Shown: positions 26,683 through 36,060 of the stretch, piece by piece | Position numbering within the stretch: the first letter of the stretch is position 1 | How the letters are laid out: each line of letters starts with the position of its first letter | Assembly: GCA_963751455.1 (NCBI GenBank) | Contig: CAVVUN010000009.1 | Span: forward strand, 256,001 to 320,000 | Direction of reading: 5' to 3' | Origin: Nitrospirota bacterium | Lineage (GTDB): Bacteria > Nitrospirota > UBA9217 | Length of the DNA: 64,000 nt | Notes under the pieces: generated by a model | What the model was told of the DNA's origin: nothing | The model's input: the letters and a program-made list of their open reading frames with translations, nothing else | Databases searched by the model: none | Position numbers and translations under genes: made by a program

Positions 26683-29658
26683 TTAATTCTCAGGCTTCTT
26701 GACTGCTAAAAAATGAACGCCAGGTTCTGGCGGCACTAACCACGCGCCAATGGCCTCACCCTCTGTTGGTTGATAGCGATATGACTGGTGAGATTGAGCT
26801 GATGCCCCAATCTTCCAGCCATAACCCATCGATTCAAGCGTAAGCAACGGAGAAAACACGGCGTCATCTGTATCAACTAGACTGCGTCCGTTAAGATGGA
26901 ACGGGGCAATGCCTACTTGAGTGGCTTGTTCAGCCGCCGATAAGTTTCTCTTGCTTACCAGAGTGACATTTCGAGCGCGGAGTGATTTTAGCGCATCTGC
27001 TATTTCAAATTCCAATGTCTTAGGCGACTGTTGGAGACCATTTGCTTTTATGTGGGTTGTTTTACTTAACAGCAACCTTCTCATATGCAACAAATCGACC
27101 TGGGATTCGTTAACAAAGTCAAAGAGAATATTTAGTGGAATGTCACGCGAGTAAGGAAGCAACCCAATTTCGATATACGTTTGCTGTTCATTTTGAATTG
27201 CCGGAATGCAATTGGCCGCCTCGGTAAGTAATTGCTCCATAACTCCATGACCAGGACTTACACAGCCCACTCCTGAAGCAGGAACCAGAAGGAACTTTCC
27301 ACTCGCTAAAAAAGATTTCGCCTCAGTAATGAGAAATTTCATAACATCATTGGGCAACCATGAAGCATACCCCATCGCCATAAAGCGATGTCGTCCCGTT
27401 TTCGATTTCAATTCAGACCCGAGCGTTAATAGGTACCCAGCACCCCAAGGCCCAAACCAATTTCCATCGACCATGTGAAGAAACTTTCCAGATTTGGTTG
27501 GTCCTTTCCACAACAATAAGGTGAAATCTGCATATAAAGACCACAGTCTAAGCGCCTGCCTGATGTCCTCCAGTGATCGCACTTCGATTGTTACATTCAA
27601 TGAGTGTGGAAACGCTTGCAAGTTTCGGAGAATTTGTGCAAAGCAACCGCGGCCCCAATAGTCATAATCGAGCGCTGCCGCATTATAGTCATCTGCGGTA
27701 TCTTCCCACCATTTGACAACAGGGGCTACGGTCAATGCGTTTGCCTCATGTAAACTTAAAATGGGTTCTTCGCTAGGGTTTTCTATTTCTGAATCGCCAA
27801 GATAACGAGAAAAGCCTCTCGCTCGTTCAAGGGTCTCCTTAAAGACGTTTGGCCCTTGTCCTATGAGCGATATGTCAATTATTCGTTTGCGAAGTTCGAT
27901 GTTTGCTTCGACCCGCTTTATATAGTTTTCCTTGATTTTGCATAGCTTTTCATCTTCAGTCAAGCATTCGCCCAATTTAGTCATTGCGCTTTGAAGGCTA
28001 TCGTTCTGTCCGAGCTGTGAAGAATAATTAGCGATCAATCCTAATATTTCTAAATGAATATCCATTGGCACACTAATGCGCCCGGCAACCAAATGATATG
28101 CTTCTTGCGCCAATTCTAAAGCACGCTCAGTTTGCCCTTTGTCTGCAAGTGCCTCTGCCAAATTCATCTTAGCCATAAAGGAAGAATCGACCTCGGAGGC
28201 AAGATCTACGGCTATTTCAGCTTTTTCCACAGCTGTAGCTAAATCGCCTAACTGCCGCGAGATCACAGAAACCAACTGTGTAGTAGCGAACGTAATAGGC
28301 TCAGTCTCTGGTGACACAGCAATGTTCAAGAGTGATTTTGCTTTCTGTAGCGCCTCCTCAAGTCGTCCAGCTTGAAAGTTAACCAAAGCCACCGTGTAAA
28401 GTACGCCGGGTAGAAAGGCCTTACGTGTATCTGTTGAAACTTTGTCAGCTAAACGCAATGCCGCTTCAGACGCGGCTACTGCTGTACTATGACGTTTGGC
28501 GTGTGATGAATTATTTGCAACATTAATCAATTGCCCTGCAATACGCAGGGAGAGAAAGCTGTTACGCGCCGAAGCTTCCAACTCATGAATTCGAGATATA
28601 GCCGCATCTTCATCGCCTGACTTCACTGCCCAGTGAATCCCAGCGTTAAGGGCTGCTTGAAAAACCTCACCGTCAAGCATATCGGGATTGCGCTTTGCAT
28701 ATGTCTCAGCTAAGTTGAGATGCTCCTCGGCCTCACTAGAGCGGTTCGCATTGCACAGAAGATGTACGTACTCTGAACGGGCGACGCATAGTTGTTCGTC
28801 ACAACGCTCGATATTTGCAGGTAGGCTGGCCAATGCAATTGCTTCCAGATATGCAGATTCGGCCCCGTGAAAATCGCGCTTTTCCTCTAGATACGCACCA
28901 CGCGCTCGATGGTACATCACTAAAACGGGCACTTCCGTAATATCTTTATGCAAGGACTCAAGCCGTTGAAAGTAATATCCGCGATCACCTATGCCACCTC
29001 GGGCAGACGAAAGTAAGGATAGGCCAATTAGTACTTCAGCCTGTAAATGGACGAGCTTCTCAGTCTCAGCTATCACAAGTGCCTCTTCCATTGCCTCAAA
29101 TGCCTTACGTCTTTTGTCTTGATTGGCTAGTTCGGTCGCTCGCTTCAATAAAGAGCGTATTTTTGACTCAATTTGATTTGGCGATTTGGAAATTCCAAAT
29201 AGAGAAGATAGCTTCTCCGTCGTTAATTTTTCCAGTCGTTCCCATAGACCGTCAATTCCAAGGGCCTCGACACGAACGTCTGGGTTCACAGCGCTCAGCC
29301 GCGCTAATGTCTTTGCTGTAAGGTGCCCAACCTTGCCATCAGCGCTATTGTGAATAAACGTCCATACTTTGAGAGAACTACCAAGAGTGTCTTTTGCCTT
29401 ATTGAAGTCGGCTGCGACCTTGGAGGCCGTGCTACTATCAGTAGTGAGGCTAGGCGGGGCATAGAGTTGATAAACTCTTCCTTCTTTCAATGCCAACCCG
29501 TCGATGCCACCATCACCTCTTGTTACACGAATTGCCAAGAAGCAGTCTTCGCCGTGAAGAGCAATCGCAATTTTTTCAAACCAGTTTTGGAAGGCTTCCC
29601 CGTGAACACTGCGGAACTCTTCTCGATATTTAAGTTTAATGCCTTGTTCTAAGTCCAT
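26683..29658 (-). CDS. N-terminal restriction-endonuclease-like domain + TPR-like repeats + unknown C-terminal domain (991 aa; cassette gene)
   Basis: GEAFQ..F, GDGGIDG, VYQLYAP, K...DF.KA at the N-terminus; Ala/Leu-rich helical repeats aa ~165-600. Confidence 0.7.
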   Translation of the reverse strand: MDLEQGIKLKYREEFRSVHGEAFQNWFEKIAIALHGEDCFLAIRVTRGDGGIDGLALKEGRVYQLYAPPSLTTDSSTASKVAADFNKAKDTLGSSLKVWTFIHNSADGKVGHLTAKTLARLSAVNPDVRVEALGIDGLWERLEKLTTEKLSSLFGISKSPNQIESKIRSLLKRATELANQDKRRKAFEAMEEALVIAETEKLVHLQAEVLIGLSLLSSARGGIGDRGYYFQRLESLHKDITEVPVLVMYHRARGAYLEEKRDFHGAESAYLEAIALASLPANIERCDEQLCVARSEYVHLLCNANRSSEAEEHLNLAETYAKRNPDMLDGEVFQAALNAGIHWAVKSGDEDAAISRIHELEASARNSFLSLRIAGQLINVANNSSHAKRHSTAVAASEAALRLADKVSTDTRKAFLPGVLYTVALVNFQAGRLEEALQKAKSLLNIAVSPETEPITFATTQLVSVISRQLGDLATAVEKAEIAVDLASEVDSSFMAKMNLAEALADKGQTERALELAQEAYHLVAGRISVPMDIHLEILGLIANYSSQLGQNDSLQSAMTKLGECLTEDEKLCKIKENYIKRVEANIELRKRIIDISLIGQGPNVFKETLERARGFSRYLGDSEIENPSEEPILSLHEANALTVAPVVKWWEDTADDYNAAALDYDYWGRGCFAQILRNLQAFPHSLNVTIEVRSLEDIRQALRLWSLYADFTLLLWKGPTKSGKFLHMVDGNWFGPWGAGYLLTLGSELKSKTGRHRFMAMGYASWLPNDVMKFLITEAKSFLASGKFLLVPASGVGCVSPGHGVMEQLLTEAANCIPAIQNEQQTYIEIGLLPYSRDIPLNILFDFVNESQVDLLHMRRLLLSKTTHIKANGLQQSPKTLEFEIADALKSLRARNVTLVSKRNLSAAEQATQVGIAPFHLNGRSLVDTDDAVFSPLLTLESMGYGWKIGASAQSHQSYRYQPTEGEAIGAWLVPPEPGVHFLAVKKPEN

Positions 29659-29740: not shown

Positions 29741-29799
29741 GGGTAACATGCGGATGTGGGGCGTGATTCTCAACGACCCTTACGATCCGCTTGTTATGC
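29741..29799 (-). other. attC site (59 bp)
   Basis: Minus strand: GCATAAC AAGCGGATCGT...ACATCCGCAT GTTACCC; R'' contains the TAA stop of the upstream gene; extrahelical base in L''. Confidence 0.85.
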
Positions 29800-31581
29800 C
29801 TGCTCGATAAATAGCTCTGAACCTCTTTTTATAGATCGGTTGAACATAATACCGATCTCGCCGGAATGAGCCTCGTCAACGCTTTTATCGTCTATTTGTA
29901 TAGACTTCACAACAGCTACCGCGTAGCTTGAATTCTTTTTTACAATTATCTTCATGTTTCTTGTGATATGAATTCTATTGATGTTTTTTACGATCGCAAT
30001 TTTCCCATCCTGATAGTATTCTTCGGGAACGCCAATGGAAATAAGGTTTTCGGGTTTTAATTCAATTAATCCCACTTGAAACAATTTATTGCGGACATGT
30101 TCCTTAGTTATTATGCCGTCTTCAACCATGAAGTATGCTTTGTACAACTCAAAAGTTGTTAATAGGCCACGCTTATCCAAAAGCGCATCTCCTATCTGGA
30201 CGTCTGAAAAAGGAGGATTAAGCCTGCTGTGAGGAGGTATATAACGCTGATGATTAACTATATACAGCCCAAAAACATCAAACCGATTTCTCTGCTCGGC
30301 TCTTCGAAATCTAATTTTGGATATCTGTGAGCAATCCTTGTCTGTGGATGTGCCACTGATGCCCTTAACCTCGATAACAAGAAGTCCTTTTTCATTTTCT
30401 ACTTGCAAATCCTCTTCCTTAATTTCTAATTCCAACTCGTCCATGTTTACGACGGATTCAAAGCCTAACCAGTTAAGAAAATATTCGACTGCCTTTACAA
30501 GCTTATCGCCGGTTTCAAATATAAGTTCATGAAGAAAGTGATATTTAATTCTATTTTCACTTAGCAATCTATCCAAATCATGAATATCTTTTTGATATTT
30601 CTCTTCGAGATTTTTCTTAGCCTCAATAAGGGCATTTTCACCAGGGAGTAAATATTCTCCACTTTTTAGCCATCCGAATTGACCATGAAATGGAAACAAT
30701 TCTGGGTAAATTTCGGGAAGATAAACGTTGAGTAGGTCAGAAAGAAATTTTCCCTTATTCTTGATATCGGGAAAAACTAAAATCAATCCTTCGTCATAAA
30801 AGTGACTAAAACTAATTATTTCCCCATTATCATTGACTAACAATGGCAAGAAAGATTTCATTTTCACATTCTTTCCATCTTTCCATTCTGTCGGATGGGA
30901 AAAAACTATATTATAGGTTGAGCCATCCAGATATTTTTCAAGAAGTGGAGACAATTTAGTCTCACTCTCCGGAAGTTTTATTTTATTACCAGACTTATTT
31001 TTCGAGGATGGTAAGCCACTATAGAAATCAAGATTTGAATATTCTTTTTCGCTCGTAACATTAGCATAACGGTCATTAATTTCTACGAATTGATAAGAAA
31101 CGCTCTCTTCTTGAGGAGAGAAGCATATGACGACAGACTCTTTTTTTAGTATTTCTGCAATTTCTTTGGCGATGACATAAATAGACAGAGGCCTCGGATC
31201 GAAAATCGTTTGCGGATATTTGCAAAGTAGAGCATGTGCTTTTTTGTCCTTTGTTCGGTCTATGCTGTGATCATTATCTTTATACTCAATACTTTTCTCT
31301 CTAGTCATATCAAAAATGACTATGTCAAACTCGTGAAGATTTGCAGGAATTCGATAATTGAGCAATAAGAAATGTTCAGAATGGCGTTCGTTATTTGGAA
31401 CTTTTACGCAGGTTCCGGTACTTGCCACCTCATGCTTAAAAAGGTTTGAACTTAGAAGCTTCGAGACGTCATCATCAGTATCAAATAAACATATCAATGG
31501 CCTTTCATGAGGAGATGCGCTTTGAACCTGAGCATCTTTTATTGTTCCCAAAGTGTCTTTCTTTTTTTTCGTTTTAAACAT
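29794..31581 (-). CDS. PD-(D/E)xK nuclease with C-terminal EF-Tu domain II/U32-C-like beta-barrel (595 aa; cassette gene)
   Basis: TGDKLV.AV..FL..LGF, EEDLQV..LVIEVKG; C-terminal IG...YY...IAIV..VKSIQIDDKSVDEAHSGEIGI..IKRGSELF; very AT-rich. Confidence 0.7.
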   Translation of the reverse strand: MFKTKKKKDTLGTIKDAQVQSASPHERPLICLFDTDDDVSKLLSSNLFKHEVASTGTCVKVPNNERHSEHFLLLNYRIPANLHEFDIVIFDMTREKSIEYKDNDHSIDRTKDKKAHALLCKYPQTIFDPRPLSIYVIAKEIAEILKKESVVICFSPQEESVSYQFVEINDRYANVTSEKEYSNLDFYSGLPSSKNKSGNKIKLPESETKLSPLLEKYLDGSTYNIVFSHPTEWKDGKNVKMKSFLPLLVNDNGEIISFSHFYDEGLILVFPDIKNKGKFLSDLLNVYLPEIYPELFPFHGQFGWLKSGEYLLPGENALIEAKKNLEEKYQKDIHDLDRLLSENRIKYHFLHELIFETGDKLVKAVEYFLNWLGFESVVNMDELELEIKEEDLQVENEKGLLVIEVKGISGTSTDKDCSQISKIRFRRAEQRNRFDVFGLYIVNHQRYIPPHSRLNPPFSDVQIGDALLDKRGLLTTFELYKAYFMVEDGIITKEHVRNKLFQVGLIELKPENLISIGVPEEYYQDGKIAIVKNINRIHITRNMKIIVKKNSSYAVAVVKSIQIDDKSVDEAHSGEIGIMFNRSIKRGSELFIEQA

Positions 31582-31617: not shown

Positions 31618-33425
31618 GAGTCTGTAGAAAAAGTCATTTTGCGAGAGATCTTTTTATCGCATCTCGTCTTTGATCCAACCTGTGTGCTCAGATTATCGGT
31701 TCGTTTTGATGATCTGCTTCGTGAGTGCCCCGGTTTCTATTCGGGTTGCCTTTCATTTACTGCTTTTTTGCTGCTCTTAACCATGCTTCTCACGCAAACC
31801 CCGGCCCGTATCGATGCACCTTCAGAAGATTGTGCACAATGCAGTAGAGCCGCCACTGGATGCTCACCTTCTTTTTCCCTCTGAGACTGAATCGATCCAG
31901 GCCGAGACTGGAACGGATGTCGGCAAAGACGGGTTCGACCGTCGCCATCCTTCTTCCATAGATCAGCTTGCCCGCTACCGAATCTATCTTCTCCCGCATC
32001 TTCTGCGTGAAGGTCTTGGTCTTGTTGCTCGGTCTTCCCGGTAAAGTGCGCGAACTGGCGGGTTACGGTCACATCGGGATTCTTCATGCACTTTGCTCTG
32101 AATTGGCAGGGGATGCAGTCTCTCTTGGTTCCATGGTACTTGATGGCGTGTAGTCCATTATGGATTGCGTTGCCGCTTTTGTACATCCGTTTCCCGGCCG
32201 GGCAGATGCAGAAGCTCTTGTCAGGGCTTACCGTGAAGTCGCGAGGCTGGAAGATGATGGCTCGGTCGAATCTTTTCGCGACCTCTTTATTGAACCGCTC
32301 CTTGTGTCGGTCCGCATCGGCGAACCGGGGATCGCGGTGACGGAATTTATTGTCTGCGATGTATGCGTCGATGCCGTCCTCGATTACCATCTCCACGTTC
32401 TTTTCGGAGTGGAAGCCGCTGTCGCTGGTCAGTTTGGTCTTTTTGAAGATGTCTTCTTCTTTCCCGATCGCCTTGAAGTTCTCCCGCGTTCCTTCGACCA
32501 TGGGTTTCAGTATTGCGGATTCGGAGTCTCCGGTCGCCTCTGCATGGACCACGACCTGATGCTTGCTGTCGACCATCGCTACGCCGTTGTAGCCCTGGAC
32601 GACGCCGTGGGAGGTCTTCATGTTGGCGCTTTCATTGTCGGTGATGTTGCTCTTCCTCGGTTTGCCCTTGCTGCCGGGCTTGTCGTCGTTTTCCTCGAGC
32701 CAGGCTTTGATCTTTTTGACCTTCGCCTTGAGGGTGGAAATGTATTGCTCTTCCTTCTCTATGACCGCCTTGTCGGTCTCGGTTTTGTCTCGTTCCTTAT
32801 GCTTGCGCGATGATCTGCCGGATGGCCTTTTCCATCTTCTCTTTTTTATGCTGGAGATCTTTCTTGGTTCCGCTCCATTCCTTTGAAGCATTCGAGGGGA
32901 GCTTGCAGCCGTCTACCGCGAACATCTCTTTGCCGATCAGGCCCATCTCGTCGCAGATAAGAAGGACTTCGAGGAAGAGCTTGATCGTTTCCTGGTCATG
33001 CGAGGAGATGAAGTCGGCTATCGTCGTGAAGTGCGGCCGGGTGTCGGCGGAGAGGGCCATGAAGATGACGTTCTCGTTGCAGCAGTCGGCGATCTTCCGG
33101 CTTGAGGTGATTCCCTTCGAATAGGCGTACAGGACGATCTTTAAGAGAATCCGGGGATCGTAGGCCGGGGCGCCGGTCTCGTCGTTCTTGTAGCGAAGGT
33201 CAAATGCGGAAAGGTCGAGTTCGTTGTCGATGAGATAATGAAGCGTGTGTTCGAAGGTGCCGTGAAGGATCTGTTTATCGAAGTTGATCGGAATGAACTT
33301 GCCTTGGGAATAATCGTACTCCTTGTATTTCGCCATACGCCTCCCGTGGGTGAGGGGTATTTGATGATTCCTTACAGCGTTTTGATGGCGTCATTATAGC
33401 ATAAAATGACTTTTCCTACAGGTTC
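31618..33425 (-). mobile_element. IS1182-family insertion sequence, 23-bp imperfect terminal inverted repeats, 3-bp AAC/GTT target duplication
   Basis: GAGTCTGTAGAAAAAGTCATTTT (31618-40) vs GAACCTGTAGGAAAAGTCATTTT (rc of 33403-25); AAC at 31615-17 and 33426-28. Confidence 0.9.
31790..33336 (-). CDS. IS1182 DDE transposase in three frameshifted pieces
   Basis: GAPAYDPRILLK..Y, PHFTTIADF, AVDGCKLPSNAS, TDNES..MK, GYN, DSGF, VEPVFA. Confidence 0.9.
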
Positions 33426-33480
33426 AACACGCGCCTGACGCGCCGCCTTTGGCGCGTCGCTGTCGAGGCGCACGTTAATA
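33426..33480 (-). other. attC site interrupted at R' by IS1182
   Basis: Minus strand: TATTAAC GTGCGCCTCGAC...GTCAGGCGCGT GTT[IS]GTTATCG. Confidence 0.85.
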
Positions 33481-33495
33481 CTCTCTAAAAATAAT

Positions 33496-34377
33496 TTATC
33501 TGGGGCCGCCGTGCTCCCAAGCCATAAAAAATAATAATTGCAGCGGAGAGGTTACAACGTCAAAAGCAACGGTCAGCGGCGTGCCTATGCTCCTTATAAC
33601 GAGAGGGTAATCATATATTTTCTCTGGTCGAAAAAGATAGAATTTTATCGGAAGAGGCTGTTTTTCCTGTGGCAAGATTGCCATCCATCCGCTTGTATCA
33701 AACTCTTTTAGAATAACTGCGTCTGATTTATAACAACATAGCGAATAATAGTATAAATGAGATCCGTCAGGTTTATAATTATAAGAAAAATCAGATGGAA
33801 GAATAATCGAAGGATAATGAAAATAGCTATGAAATGGCGGAATCGCTTCGACGTGTTGGGATCGTGAGCCCACAAGCGAGGAAGACTCGCGGTCTTTAAA
33901 GTAAGTGCCTATCACAGATGGTAGCTTGAATGTGACATTTAATTCCCAACTATTATTTTTATCAACTTTTATTGCGTAGAGATCAATTGGACTAATTAAG
34001 CTTTTAAATAATGCTTCATAGTTTGTTTTTATAAATGAATCAGGGTTTCCTGGAATATAAGAACCTTTTTCTTTTATAATAAGGAAGCCATCTAAAACCC
34101 CGGGAAAGGATTTATTTTCTTTTTGATCTTGTTTAATGTGAAATGGGACACAATAGGTTTTAAAATTTACGGCCTTCGATTCCCCATGAGAATCGTCAAT
34201 TTTCCCTTTATCATAGCTGACATAAATTTGATCAGCCTCGCCAATCATCAACTTCTCTGCTCTAACCCCTTGCTGATGGTTCCACAATAAAGTCGTGGCA
34301 CATCCGCTGCATACTGAAGAGATAAACAAAAAGAGACTAAATAGAAGTATCTTCCTTGGCTTCTTAAAATACGCCAT
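33496..34377 (-). CDS. hypothetical lipoprotein (cassette gene)
   Basis: Lipobox-like VCSGC/AT; C-terminal TPLTVAFDVVTSPLQ; AT-rich; followed by attC. Confidence 0.7.
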   Translation of the reverse strand: MAYFKKPRKILLFSLFLFISSVCSGCATTLLWNHQQGVRAEKLMIGEADQIYVSYDKGKIDDSHGESKAVNFKTYCVPFHIKQDQKENKSFPGVLDGFLIIKEKGSYIPGNPDSFIKTNYEALFKSLISPIDLYAIKVDKNNSWELNVTFKLPSVIGTYFKDRESSSLVGSRSQHVEAIPPFHSYFHYPSIILPSDFSYNYKPDGSHLYYYSLCCYKSDAVILKEFDTSGWMAILPQEKQPLPIKFYLFRPEKIYDYPLVIRSIGTPLTVAFDVVTSPLQLLFFMAWEHGGPR

Positions 34378-34408
34378 CGGGAACCTTTCATGACATGTCT
34401 AATGAAAA

Positions 34409-34503
34409 CATTAATGCGGCAGCTGAGCCATGACCCCGAAGGGGTTCTCCCGGCGTGGTTTTCGCGCCGGGTTAGGAGCGATGGCTCAGCTGCCGCATTC
34501 TCG
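34409..34503 (-). other. symmetrical attC-like element with perfect 19-bp arms (AAT...ATT core)
   Basis: AATGCGGCAGCTGAGCCAT (34413-31) / ATGGCTCAGCTGCCGCATT (34481-99) enclosing small hairpins. Confidence 0.6.
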
Positions 34504-34518
34504 CGGCGCGAAGCGCCG

Positions 34519-34571
34519 GGAGAATCGCGCCGGTCACGCGCCGTCCGACGCTGTGGACCGGCAGGTTGGAA
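34519..34571 (-). other. short attC site (53 bp) of a gene-less cassette
   Basis: Minus strand: TTCCAAC CTGCCGGTCCAC...GTGACCGGCGCG ATTCTCC; extrahelical C. Confidence 0.7.
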
Positions 34572-34582
34572 CTTATTATATT

Positions 34583-34680
34583 TTGCAATGCAGCAGCTAA
34601 GCCTTACTTGATAGCGACCGACGGAGAGGTAGCGCAAAAAGCGAAGCTGTCAAGCGTCGGGCTCCAACTGATTGTTAGAG
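34583..34680 (-). other. attC site (98 bp)
   Basis: Minus strand: CTCTAAC AATCA GTTGGAGC ... GCTTAGC TGCTGC ATTGCAA; overlaps the 3' end of the HEPN gene. Confidence 0.75.
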
Positions 34681-35393
34681 AGAGCATTTTCATGTTTGGC
34701 TATTTCTTCTTTCAGCTCGTGAGCTCTAGCCGCAATATCTTTCCGTATACAATCTAAAACATACTTGTAACTATCCTCTCCAAACATTGATGTGGAGTAT
34801 GCGAGCGCTCCGAATAGCAAACTATATTTATTGATGATACTAATGGCTCGTTCCAAGAGAACTTCGATTTCAGCAAATTTCAACGGATCGAGCACGACAC
34901 TGTTCGGAGAAAGCGTTTCTTGCGGGTTTCTGTGCGCGCCTATATTATTCCTCCAGGCAAGGAGATGACGGACCCGGGGGTCTGCGCTAGACACAAAGGC
35001 AATGTCCGACTTCAGTTCATCCTTATCGGGTATTCGAGAGTCATTTGCCAAGCTTTCAACGAAAGGATTGTCTTTCAGCCTTTTAATAAATTCTGGAGTA
35101 TCGAATATGTGTAGGTTGGCTTGGATTGTTGCCAGAAGGCGCGGGAGGCTAAGAGATGATGTATGAGAATCGTAAGCACGACACAATCGCAACAAGGTTG
35201 CATCTACCTGGGCATCTATGGCCAGATTCCAGAAAGCGGCGGATTGATTTAGTTCGGTGACGTATTCGGGTATTGCGTTGTTAAGATTTTGATACAAATG
35301 GAAATGGACATGTGCATCAACGATGTCTCGGGCCAAGCCTTTCATCAGCGAGTCGAATTCTGCCGAGTTCTTTATTCGCATCGGCTTACTCAT
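34650..35393 (-). CDS. HEPN-domain protein (AbiU2-like; cassette gene)
   Basis: LLRLCRAYD....SL..L and Rx5H motif WRNNIGAH; predicted all-helical. Confidence 0.75.
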   Translation of the reverse strand: MSKPMRIKNSAEFDSLMKGLARDIVDAHVHFHLYQNLNNAIPEYVTELNQSAAFWNLAIDAQVDATLLRLCRAYDSHTSSLSLPRLLATIQANLHIFDTPEFIKRLKDNPFVESLANDSRIPDKDELKSDIAFVSSADPRVRHLLAWRNNIGAHRNPQETLSPNSVVLDPLKFAEIEVLLERAISIINKYSLLFGALAYSTSMFGEDSYKYVLDCIRKDIAARAHELKEEIAKHENALSNNQLEPDA

Positions 35394-35486: not shown

Positions 35487-36010
35487 TAAGCCGTTCGCGC
35501 GCCACGGTCTATGGAATTTCAAATGATTTCGCTTTTAAAGATTGGTCAATCTGAGCAGTGTATCCGGGGGCATGAGATGTTTTGCGAGGTCTGTTCCGGT
35601 GAAAAGCGGCACTTCCGGACAAATCCGCAAGCCCCTTTCATTGACGACTATACAGGAATCGAGGCTTTTGGGCAATAGGATATCGTTGCGAAACACAAGG
35701 CTGTTTTCGGGGATTGGGCACCGTGTCAGGTTATCGCGTTCGAGTGCGGTCGTCATATACGCGGAGGTCCTTTACAGCGCGCGGGCAGTATCGTCTCCGT
35801 TCTCATCGTTCGTTCCCCACAGTTCGGGCACTTGCCGACTTCGAACCCGGTAAGTCGAAGCAGTCGCTCCTGCCAGGTCTCGGTCTTCTCTTCCGGCTGC
35901 TTTCGCTCAGCCGTCTCAGCCCCAAGAAGCTCCCTTGCCCGCTCGATTTTCATCCTCCGGCATCGATTTCCCAAAAATCCGTAGTGCCTGATCTTGACGA
36001 ACCTGTGACT
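35487..36010 (-). mobile_element. IS91-family remnant (transposase C-terminus and downstream end)
   Basis: FVKIRHYGFLGNR...CPNCG..M...GPP; oriIS-like TTTGAAATTCCATAG near 35508-35525. Confidence 0.75.
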
Positions 36011-36060
36011 TAAAATCTCCATTGATCAGGAGTAAGAATACCAGAATCTAATAATTCCCC

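Follow-up and report, generated by a model that had tools for sequence, protein, structure and literature searches.

The gene and its surroundings

The window, a stretch of 64,000 nucleotides from a Nitrospirota genome, contains a minus-strand gene for a 595-aa protein whose position and quoted motifs, as given in a preliminary description of this DNA, are confirmed by the list of open reading frames (ORFs) (Table 1). The GC content of the gene is 36.2%, versus 51.4% for the genome. Its stop codon lies inside the first box of an attC-like site (GCATAAC ... GTTACCC) whose bottom strand forms one long hairpin (−15.0 kcal/mol). On the other side of the gene, an IS1182-family element, whose terminal inverted repeats are imperfect and 19 bp long and whose transposase is in two ORFs, lies between the gene and a second attC-like site, which closes a cassette encoding a 293-aa lipoprotein-like protein with no family match. 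Both sites were called by a home-made rule that uses no covariance model. The same array holds a gene for a HEPN protein of the AbiU2 type, which is context and not a partner of the 595-aa protein. The integron integrase model TIGR02249 scored over its cut-off on two contigs of the genome (C1 and C2) and gave no match in the window. Judged from its sequence, the arrangement appears to be an integron-type array without an integrase, in which a single gene is flanked by attC-like sites. Phage defense functions have been reported for integron cassettes (10.1101/2024.07.02.601719).

Other features of the array are recorded here as observations. The gene directly downstream encodes a 991-aa protein that has no PADLOC match; its middle gives weak TPR matches, and a nuclease-like D-G-G-I-D-G motif can be seen by eye close to its N terminus. 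It is possibly another defense cassette. After the AbiU2 gene comes a GC-rich palindromic stretch that to the eye resembles several degenerate attC sites but stayed below the threshold of our rule. The array is headed by a remnant of an IS91-family transposase, in the place where one would look for an integron integrase.

Table 1. Features of the locus, in window coordinates
Feature	Coordinates	Strand	Basis
991-aa gene, directly downstream	26683..29658	minus	
attC-like site, 59 bp	29741..29799	minus	home-made rule
Whole gene, 595 aa	29794..31581	minus	ORF list, homolog scoring
C-terminal β-barrel, residues 513-595	29797..30045	minus	Foldseek, structural alignment, profiles
PD-(D/E)xK nuclease core (predicted), residues 347-508, FokI/BspD6I-like	30058..30543	minus	structural alignment
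Helical stalk, residues 315-355	30517..30639	minus	AlphaFold2, homolog alignment
N-terminal domain, residues 25-296, class I glutamine amidotransferase-like fold	30694..31509	minus	AlphaFold2, structural alignment
IS1182-family element, between upstream attC-like site and gene	31622..33421	minus	
Second attC-like site, 59 bp; abuts IS, closes preceding 293-aa cassette	33422..33480	minus	home-made rule
293-aa lipoprotein-like cassette gene	33496..34377	minus	
GC-rich palindromic stretch	34390..34640	minus	by eye
HEPN AbiU2 gene, same array	34650..35393	minus	PF18734, E 1.5e-27
IS91-family transposase remnant	35753..36022	minus	

A three-domain family with no match in the libraries searched

The preliminary description recognized no named system in this gene, and the libraries agree. 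The 595-aa protein has no match in Pfam, NCBIfam, PHROGs, or PDB sequences, and no PADLOC 2.0 model matched it at an E value of 0.1 or matched four of its distant homologs at 1e-5; the PADLOC library used covers systems described up to 2023. A PDB profile search with the whole protein returned only chance coiled-coil matches, and searches with each domain gave nothing significant, eRF3 appearing at E values of 0.9 to 1. The ESM Atlas returned only unnamed clusters of the same nuclease-barrel family, with the barrel alone scoring below 0.8, and a word-index search with the barrel for longer proteins found only 7 members of that family. Among 7996 candidates scored, 753 are homologs of like length, and all three domains are present in the best 120 of them without exception (120/120). 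Shorter forms account for 49 matches (29 with nuclease and barrel, 7 with all three domains, 5 with N-terminal domain and nuclease, 5 with the nuclease, and 3 with the N-terminal domain); we read these as fragments or broken copies, true split forms being also possible.

An AlphaFold2 model built with 120 homologs comprises a long helix (residues 315 to 346), an α/β core (358 to 505), and an all-β region (513 to 593). With a pTM of 0.52 beside a mean pLDDT of 86.5, the domains are confident and their mutual arrangement is not, and the domains were aligned structurally, against 48,161 chains. Conservation is unevenly spread: across 80 diverse homologs, columns that are at least 90% conserved number 38/150 in the nuclease, 13/268 in the N-terminal domain, and 1/85 in the barrel.

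The predicted nuclease core resembles FokI

The proposed PD-(D/E)xK nuclease fold was borne out. Residues 347 to 508 align with the FokI cleavage domain with a Z score of 12.5 (rmsd 3.0, 142 residues aligned), and the next matches belong to the same FokI/BspD6I fold (2fok, 2p14, 2ewf set; Z 11.9 and 11.4). The predicted catalytic residues D391, E404, and K406, which AlphaFold2 places on strands 392-396 and 399-406, are invariant (120/120, 75/75, and 80/80 aligned homologs); in the 80 diverse homologs, the invariant positions are E390, D391, E404, K406, D414, C417, K422, N443, and R453. By its modeled fold and its D...ExK set, the core belongs to the PD-(D/E)xK superfamily and is a predicted nuclease.

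The nuclease domains of Can2 and VC1899 also match the core (Z 9.6 to 9.9), folds of the RNA-cutting Can2 type at Z 9.6. In one alternative, the core would cut RNA and so arrest translation, the barrel having docked the protein on tRNA or the ribosome. We hold this, the main rival of the mechanism proposed below, to be unlikely; DNA nucleases give the best matches to the core, 2 to 3 Z units above the Can2 type, and evidence from the barrel is taken up below.

The family shares 12 to 16% identity with FokI and BspD6I and differs from them in its extra C-terminal barrel and in its missing recognition domain, FokI aligning to residues 347 to 508 only. Type IIS enzymes have a cognate methyltransferase, whereas methyltransferases account for only 3/150 nearest neighbors of the family and for none of the genes in the window array.

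The N-terminal domain and the stalk

Residues 25 to 296 match the class I glutamine amidotransferase-like fold with Z scores of 10.5 to 11.4 (best rmsd 3.3, 177 residues aligned). The best structural match is 2gk3 (Z 11.4), and GH42, ThuA-like, and IFT52 domains follow at Z 10.6 to 11.1; those of GH42 and IFT52 are presumably noncatalytic interaction domains. A P-x-N-x-H-E motif (residues 79 to 84) is conserved. No cysteine occurs among the conserved columns of the domain, and the Cys-His-Glu triad of amidotransferases is not kept; position 155, likely the elbow to judge by secondary structure, is a cysteine in 10/80 homologs. Because a conserved cysteine is missing, the domain is probably not an amidotransferase. 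A conserved F-P-x5-F-x-W linker precedes the helical stalk.

A large N-terminal domain, a helical linker, and a FokI-like core follow one another in a type IIS-like order, which would suit an enzyme that restricts foreign or modified DNA directly. In that case, the N-terminal domain, which has invariant residues such as E84 (80/80 diverse homologs), would recognize the target, like the recognition domain of FokI, and the barrel would be an accessory nucleic acid-binding or structural part. The scarcity of methyltransferases could be accommodated, as modification-dependent enzymes need no cognate one. We nevertheless consider direct restriction distinctly unlikely, as the N-terminal domain matched no DNA-binding fold among the structural matches listed, and the barrel does not look dispensable because it is kept in 120/120 close homologs.

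The C-terminal barrel has the fold of translation factor domain II

The preliminary description assigned the C-terminal region to the barrel fold of EF-Tu/SelB domain II and U32 proteins, and AlphaFold2, Foldseek, and structural alignment all uphold that assignment. In a Foldseek search of the PDB, the top matches listed were all EF-Tu or other translational GTPases (best E value, 3.4e-6), with low whole-chain TM scores because the match covers one small domain. Residues 513 to 595 align with domain II of eRF3, EF-Tu, and SelB at Z 10.4 to 10.5 (rmsd 2.5 to 2.8, 80 to 81 residues aligned) and with the U32 C-terminal barrel (PF16325) at Z 9.3. The Pfam model for domain II, GTP_EFTU_D2 (PF03144), matched 6/75 family barrels (best E value, 4e-4), and no NCBIfam family was matched by the barrel. 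Translational GTPases also have a G domain and a domain III, whereas the family has neither, judging from Pfam and from the FokI-like domain that precedes the barrel. A viral structure library yielded giant-virus translation factors and phage restriction-like nucleases, with no notable barrel-only match from a phage.

The closest sequence relatives of the family barrel are unfused, stand-alone proteins of about 85 aa, which carry the database label "translation elongation factor-like." Profile-profile comparison placed the family barrel with these at 97.5% (E value, 5e-12), versus 7% for the U32 barrel and 1.4% for EF-Tu domain II (E value, 0.037), a ranking in which the EF-Tu and U32 alignments are shallow (4 rows each); the stand-alone profile itself matched EF-Tu at 77%. 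An unfiltered search of 55,091 ORFs of the gene's own genome found only the gene itself and two stand-alone barrels (E values, 3e-7 and 2e-6) and no translational GTPase, though the genome has ten PF03144 matches. These two barrels lie at L092:1189-1755 and L093:1468-1776, and one has a long Lys-rich, histone-H1-like tail. Stand-alone barrels occur in 27/33 genomes of the host's family and in 31/151 genomes searched across the phylum, and no defense neighbors were seen beside them.

In EF-Tu, the E, F, and R of an E-M-F-R motif are residues of the aminoacyl-tRNA pocket of domain II. These pocket residues are not kept in the barrels of 80 homologs, in which, by a weak alignment, the corresponding positions 562, 564, and 565 are occupied by Q (54), K (13), or E (4), by N (37) or D (31), and by D (31) or G (24), respectively. 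Barrel trees were weakly resolved and neither confirmed nor rejected the profile ranking against EF-Tu; a 53-row tree set EF-Tu on the family's side, and it does not confirm the ranking because the EF-Tu branch is very long (4.5 changes per column) and support is weak (67/77).

These data bear on one of the suggestions in the preliminary description, that the barrel acts as an EF-Tu decoy, and they do not support its being a copy of EF-Tu. As a strict decoy, it would mimic domain II and trap phage proteins that bind EF-Tu, for example, the T4 capsid protein, whose binding to EF-Tu is described in the available text of PMC12803255. Avs7, according to the same text, employs domains II and III of host EF-Tu as its scaffold. 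A decoy would be in keeping with the shared fold and with the one tree just described. From the profile ranking, the own-genome search, and the changed E-M-F-R positions, however, we conclude that a strict decoy is the most improbable of the explanations weighed here; moreover, a decoy modeled on so strongly conserved a host protein ought itself to be conserved, and only a single barrel column is.

Docking of the barrel on tRNA or the ribosome would accord with the solved relatives of its fold, which are translation factors, and with Lys549, Lys579, and Lys585, which are common among the 120 closest homologs. In the diverse set, however, these lysines are found in only 28 to 41 of 80 homologs, the barrel is neutral (mean net charge, +0.2; range, −7 to +7), and the pocket positions are changed. 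A variable, uncharged surface is easier to reconcile with a sensor that is under pressure than with an unchanging binder of host RNA; low conservation is also compatible with a loosely constrained structural domain.

The barrel is also carried by HEPN proteins

A barrel profile search of 1.84 billion representatives returned 1164 matches at an E value of 0.001. The best 150 of these comprise 84 family members of full length and 29 partial ones, along with one protein that has three barrels and 36, mostly short fragments, that have a single barrel and neither of the other domains. In 2/36 (P0198 and P0293), a helical domain bearing an R-x4-H motif precedes the barrel. That of P0198 matches the HEPN families PF18735 (E value, 5e-16) and PF18737. 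P0198 has 5 cluster members, and its relatives turn up on two metagenome contigs and on three plasmids; in these three annotated plasmids, they lie downstream of a DUF262 gene. At loci L154 and L157, the upstream gene matches NsnA and PD-T4-2_A (E value, 1e-38). The barrel was detected at 4/5 DUF262-plus-HEPN loci (E values, 5e-25, 4e-28, 2e-7, and 0.007) and not at the fifth, L155.

The likeness to PD-T4-2 concerns these HEPN-barrel operons and not the window protein. PD-T4-2 is listed as DUF262 plus a PF18735 HEPN protein in the available part of PMC10952713, and it protects its native strain from T4 according to that of PMC9519451. The PD-T4-2_B model, which at 168 positions is too short to include a barrel, matched 0/5 HEPN-type proteins at 1e-5 and had no matches in 301 genomes or in the controls.

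In a tree, the HEPN-fused and nuclease-fused barrels form a group from which the stand-alone set is separate (SH-aLRT 100); nesting of HEPN-fused barrels within the nuclease-fused ones was not significant (p-AU 0.36). A structure model of a HEPN-barrel protein had a pLDDT of 55.9, falling below 50 in the barrel, a quality too low for use. Because it is also fused to HEPN proteins in DUF262-plus-HEPN (PD-T4-2-like) operons, the barrel is a portable module, present on PD-(D/E)xK nucleases and HEPN proteins alike, a new finding of this study. HEPN is usually an RNase domain, which adds a point in favor of RNA as the target of barrel-bearing enzymes.

Several further carriers and contexts were recorded. 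P0293 (303 aa) consists of a helical R-x4-H domain without a Pfam match followed by the barrel, and its N-terminal part has weak plasmid relatives that lack the barrel. P0201 (305 aa), known from a single record, has three tandem barrels of the family type. The pair of DUF262-like and HEPN-barrel genes lies at L153:1671-3949 and at L154:2789-4990; by eye, the pair in L154 sits between two cytosine methyltransferase-like genes and one such gene follows in L153, pointing to a restriction-modification locus nearby or around. We disregarded a SurE-barrel fusion (P0216), whose assembly is likely chimeric. The "novel beta rich domain" of MAE_18760 HEPN proteins is described as N-terminal and of 121 aa in the available text of PMC3710099 and is thus probably not the C-terminal barrel.

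Distribution, mobility, and neighborhoods

A pattern search of GTDB gave 123 matches, 97 of them relatives, and 80 were kept; they span many phyla and include one archaeon. Within its own phylum, the gene is present in 1/401 genomes. No conserved partner gene was found across the 80 homolog loci, the largest neighbor cluster covering 9/80 and including integrases. Seven plasmid records carry the gene, one of them between two IS1 copies, as does one phage record. Of 16 viral loci, 4 have the gene in the P2 interval from gpA to portal, where in 2 cases it stands alone; another has it beside a P4-type primase, and others beside repressors or integrases. The gpA-gpQ interval of P2 is a described defense hotspot (PMC9122126, available text).

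An attC-like site at the stop codon was found at 6/78 homolog loci versus 13/2585 ORFs of the own genome (p = 7e-6), with 15/930 for other ORFs of the homolog loci. This position-bound test was added after a position-free one had shown no clear excess (10/78 versus 30/399).

The preliminary description called for a check of whether homologs are enriched near defense systems, and the outcome was split: matches to any PADLOC model were not significantly more frequent (13/150 nearest neighbors versus 4/124 controls; p = 0.08), whereas near-full-length matches were (10/150 versus 0/124; p = 0.002, by a criterion set afterwards). Three of those 10 matches are methyltransferases. The scan covered 150 of 291 listed neighbors, and two of the loci are near copies.

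Two individual loci deserve mention. At G403:C23:8711-18905, a family gene lies about 6 to 8 kb from EF-Tu and EF-G genes, a nearness that is probably due to chance, no such pattern being seen elsewhere. In Photobacterium, a homolog adjoins a PM2-like major capsid gene (L008:10148-10978).

The genomic context (a single occurrence in the phylum, no conserved partner gene, a GC content well below that of the genome, attC-like sites in an array with an AbiU2 gene, and P2 gpA-portal loci) supports the defense role first suggested for this gene, and we consider it likely that the family is an anti-phage defense protein encoded by one gene. It could otherwise be a nuclease of a selfish or DNA-repair type that travels as mobile cargo, an explanation to which several observations lend themselves: most GTDB loci of the family are set among ordinary genes, many homologs lying among housekeeping genes; the overall excess of PADLOC neighbors is not significant; and the gene is split into two ORFs at 4/80 GTDB loci. 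Non-defense cargo is very unlikely, however, given the P2 hotspot, the prophage repressors and integrases alongside, the integron cassettes, and the patchy spread of a single gene.

Comparison with described systems

PD-T7-1, PD-T7-5, and Shedu likewise consist of one mobile gene that joins a nuclease effector to accessory domains; those domains differ from the ones found here, and the PADLOC and Pfam models of these systems are unmatched by the family. CnuH of CoCoNuT type III-A is likewise a defense protein with an EF-Tu domain II-like barrel, but there the barrel is an insert of a UPF1-like helicase within a multigene McrBC system (PMC11090510, available text). The RNA target predicted for CnuH in the same text is a further point on the side of RNA targeting.

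The nuclease-barrel architecture is not described in the literature searched, including the available parts of PMC10542128 and 10.1101/2024.01.29.577857; preprint supplements and subscription papers lay outside this search. Search terms had no matches in the main text of 10.1101/2025.01.08.631726 or in the supplement of PMC13586616. Within the sources searched, the family is likely an undescribed single-gene nuclease defense system.

Proposed mechanism and significance

We tentatively propose, at a confidence somewhat short of even, that the protein is a dormant DNase switched on when its barrel binds a phage product. Our grounds are an invariant, FokI-like core and a barrel that, though retained, varies, is uncharged, and occurs on a second effector as well. 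The predicted FokI-like core would stay off before infection. The C-terminal barrel would then act as the sensor and bind a phage product, upon which copies of the core may pair through the stalk or the probably noncatalytic N-terminal domain; FokI provides a precedent for activation by pairing. Paired cores, if they are active nucleases with DNA as their substrate, would cut DNA and so stop the infection.

It is possible, if doubtful, that the translation-factor-fold barrel is more generally a plug-in immune module of at least two unrelated toxic enzymes, a PD-(D/E)xK nuclease and a HEPN RNase, and would either detect phage proteins aimed at translation or steer the enzymes to the translation machinery. 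The presence of one 85-residue barrel on effectors of DNase and RNase folds means that deletions and swaps can separate sensing from targeting.

Together, these results describe a large, unannotated, one-gene candidate defense family that is unlike any in the libraries searched and easily tested in E. coli. The family also gives a way to approach the function of the stand-alone barrel proteins and, through a discrete barrel, the sensing of infection by single-gene nucleases.
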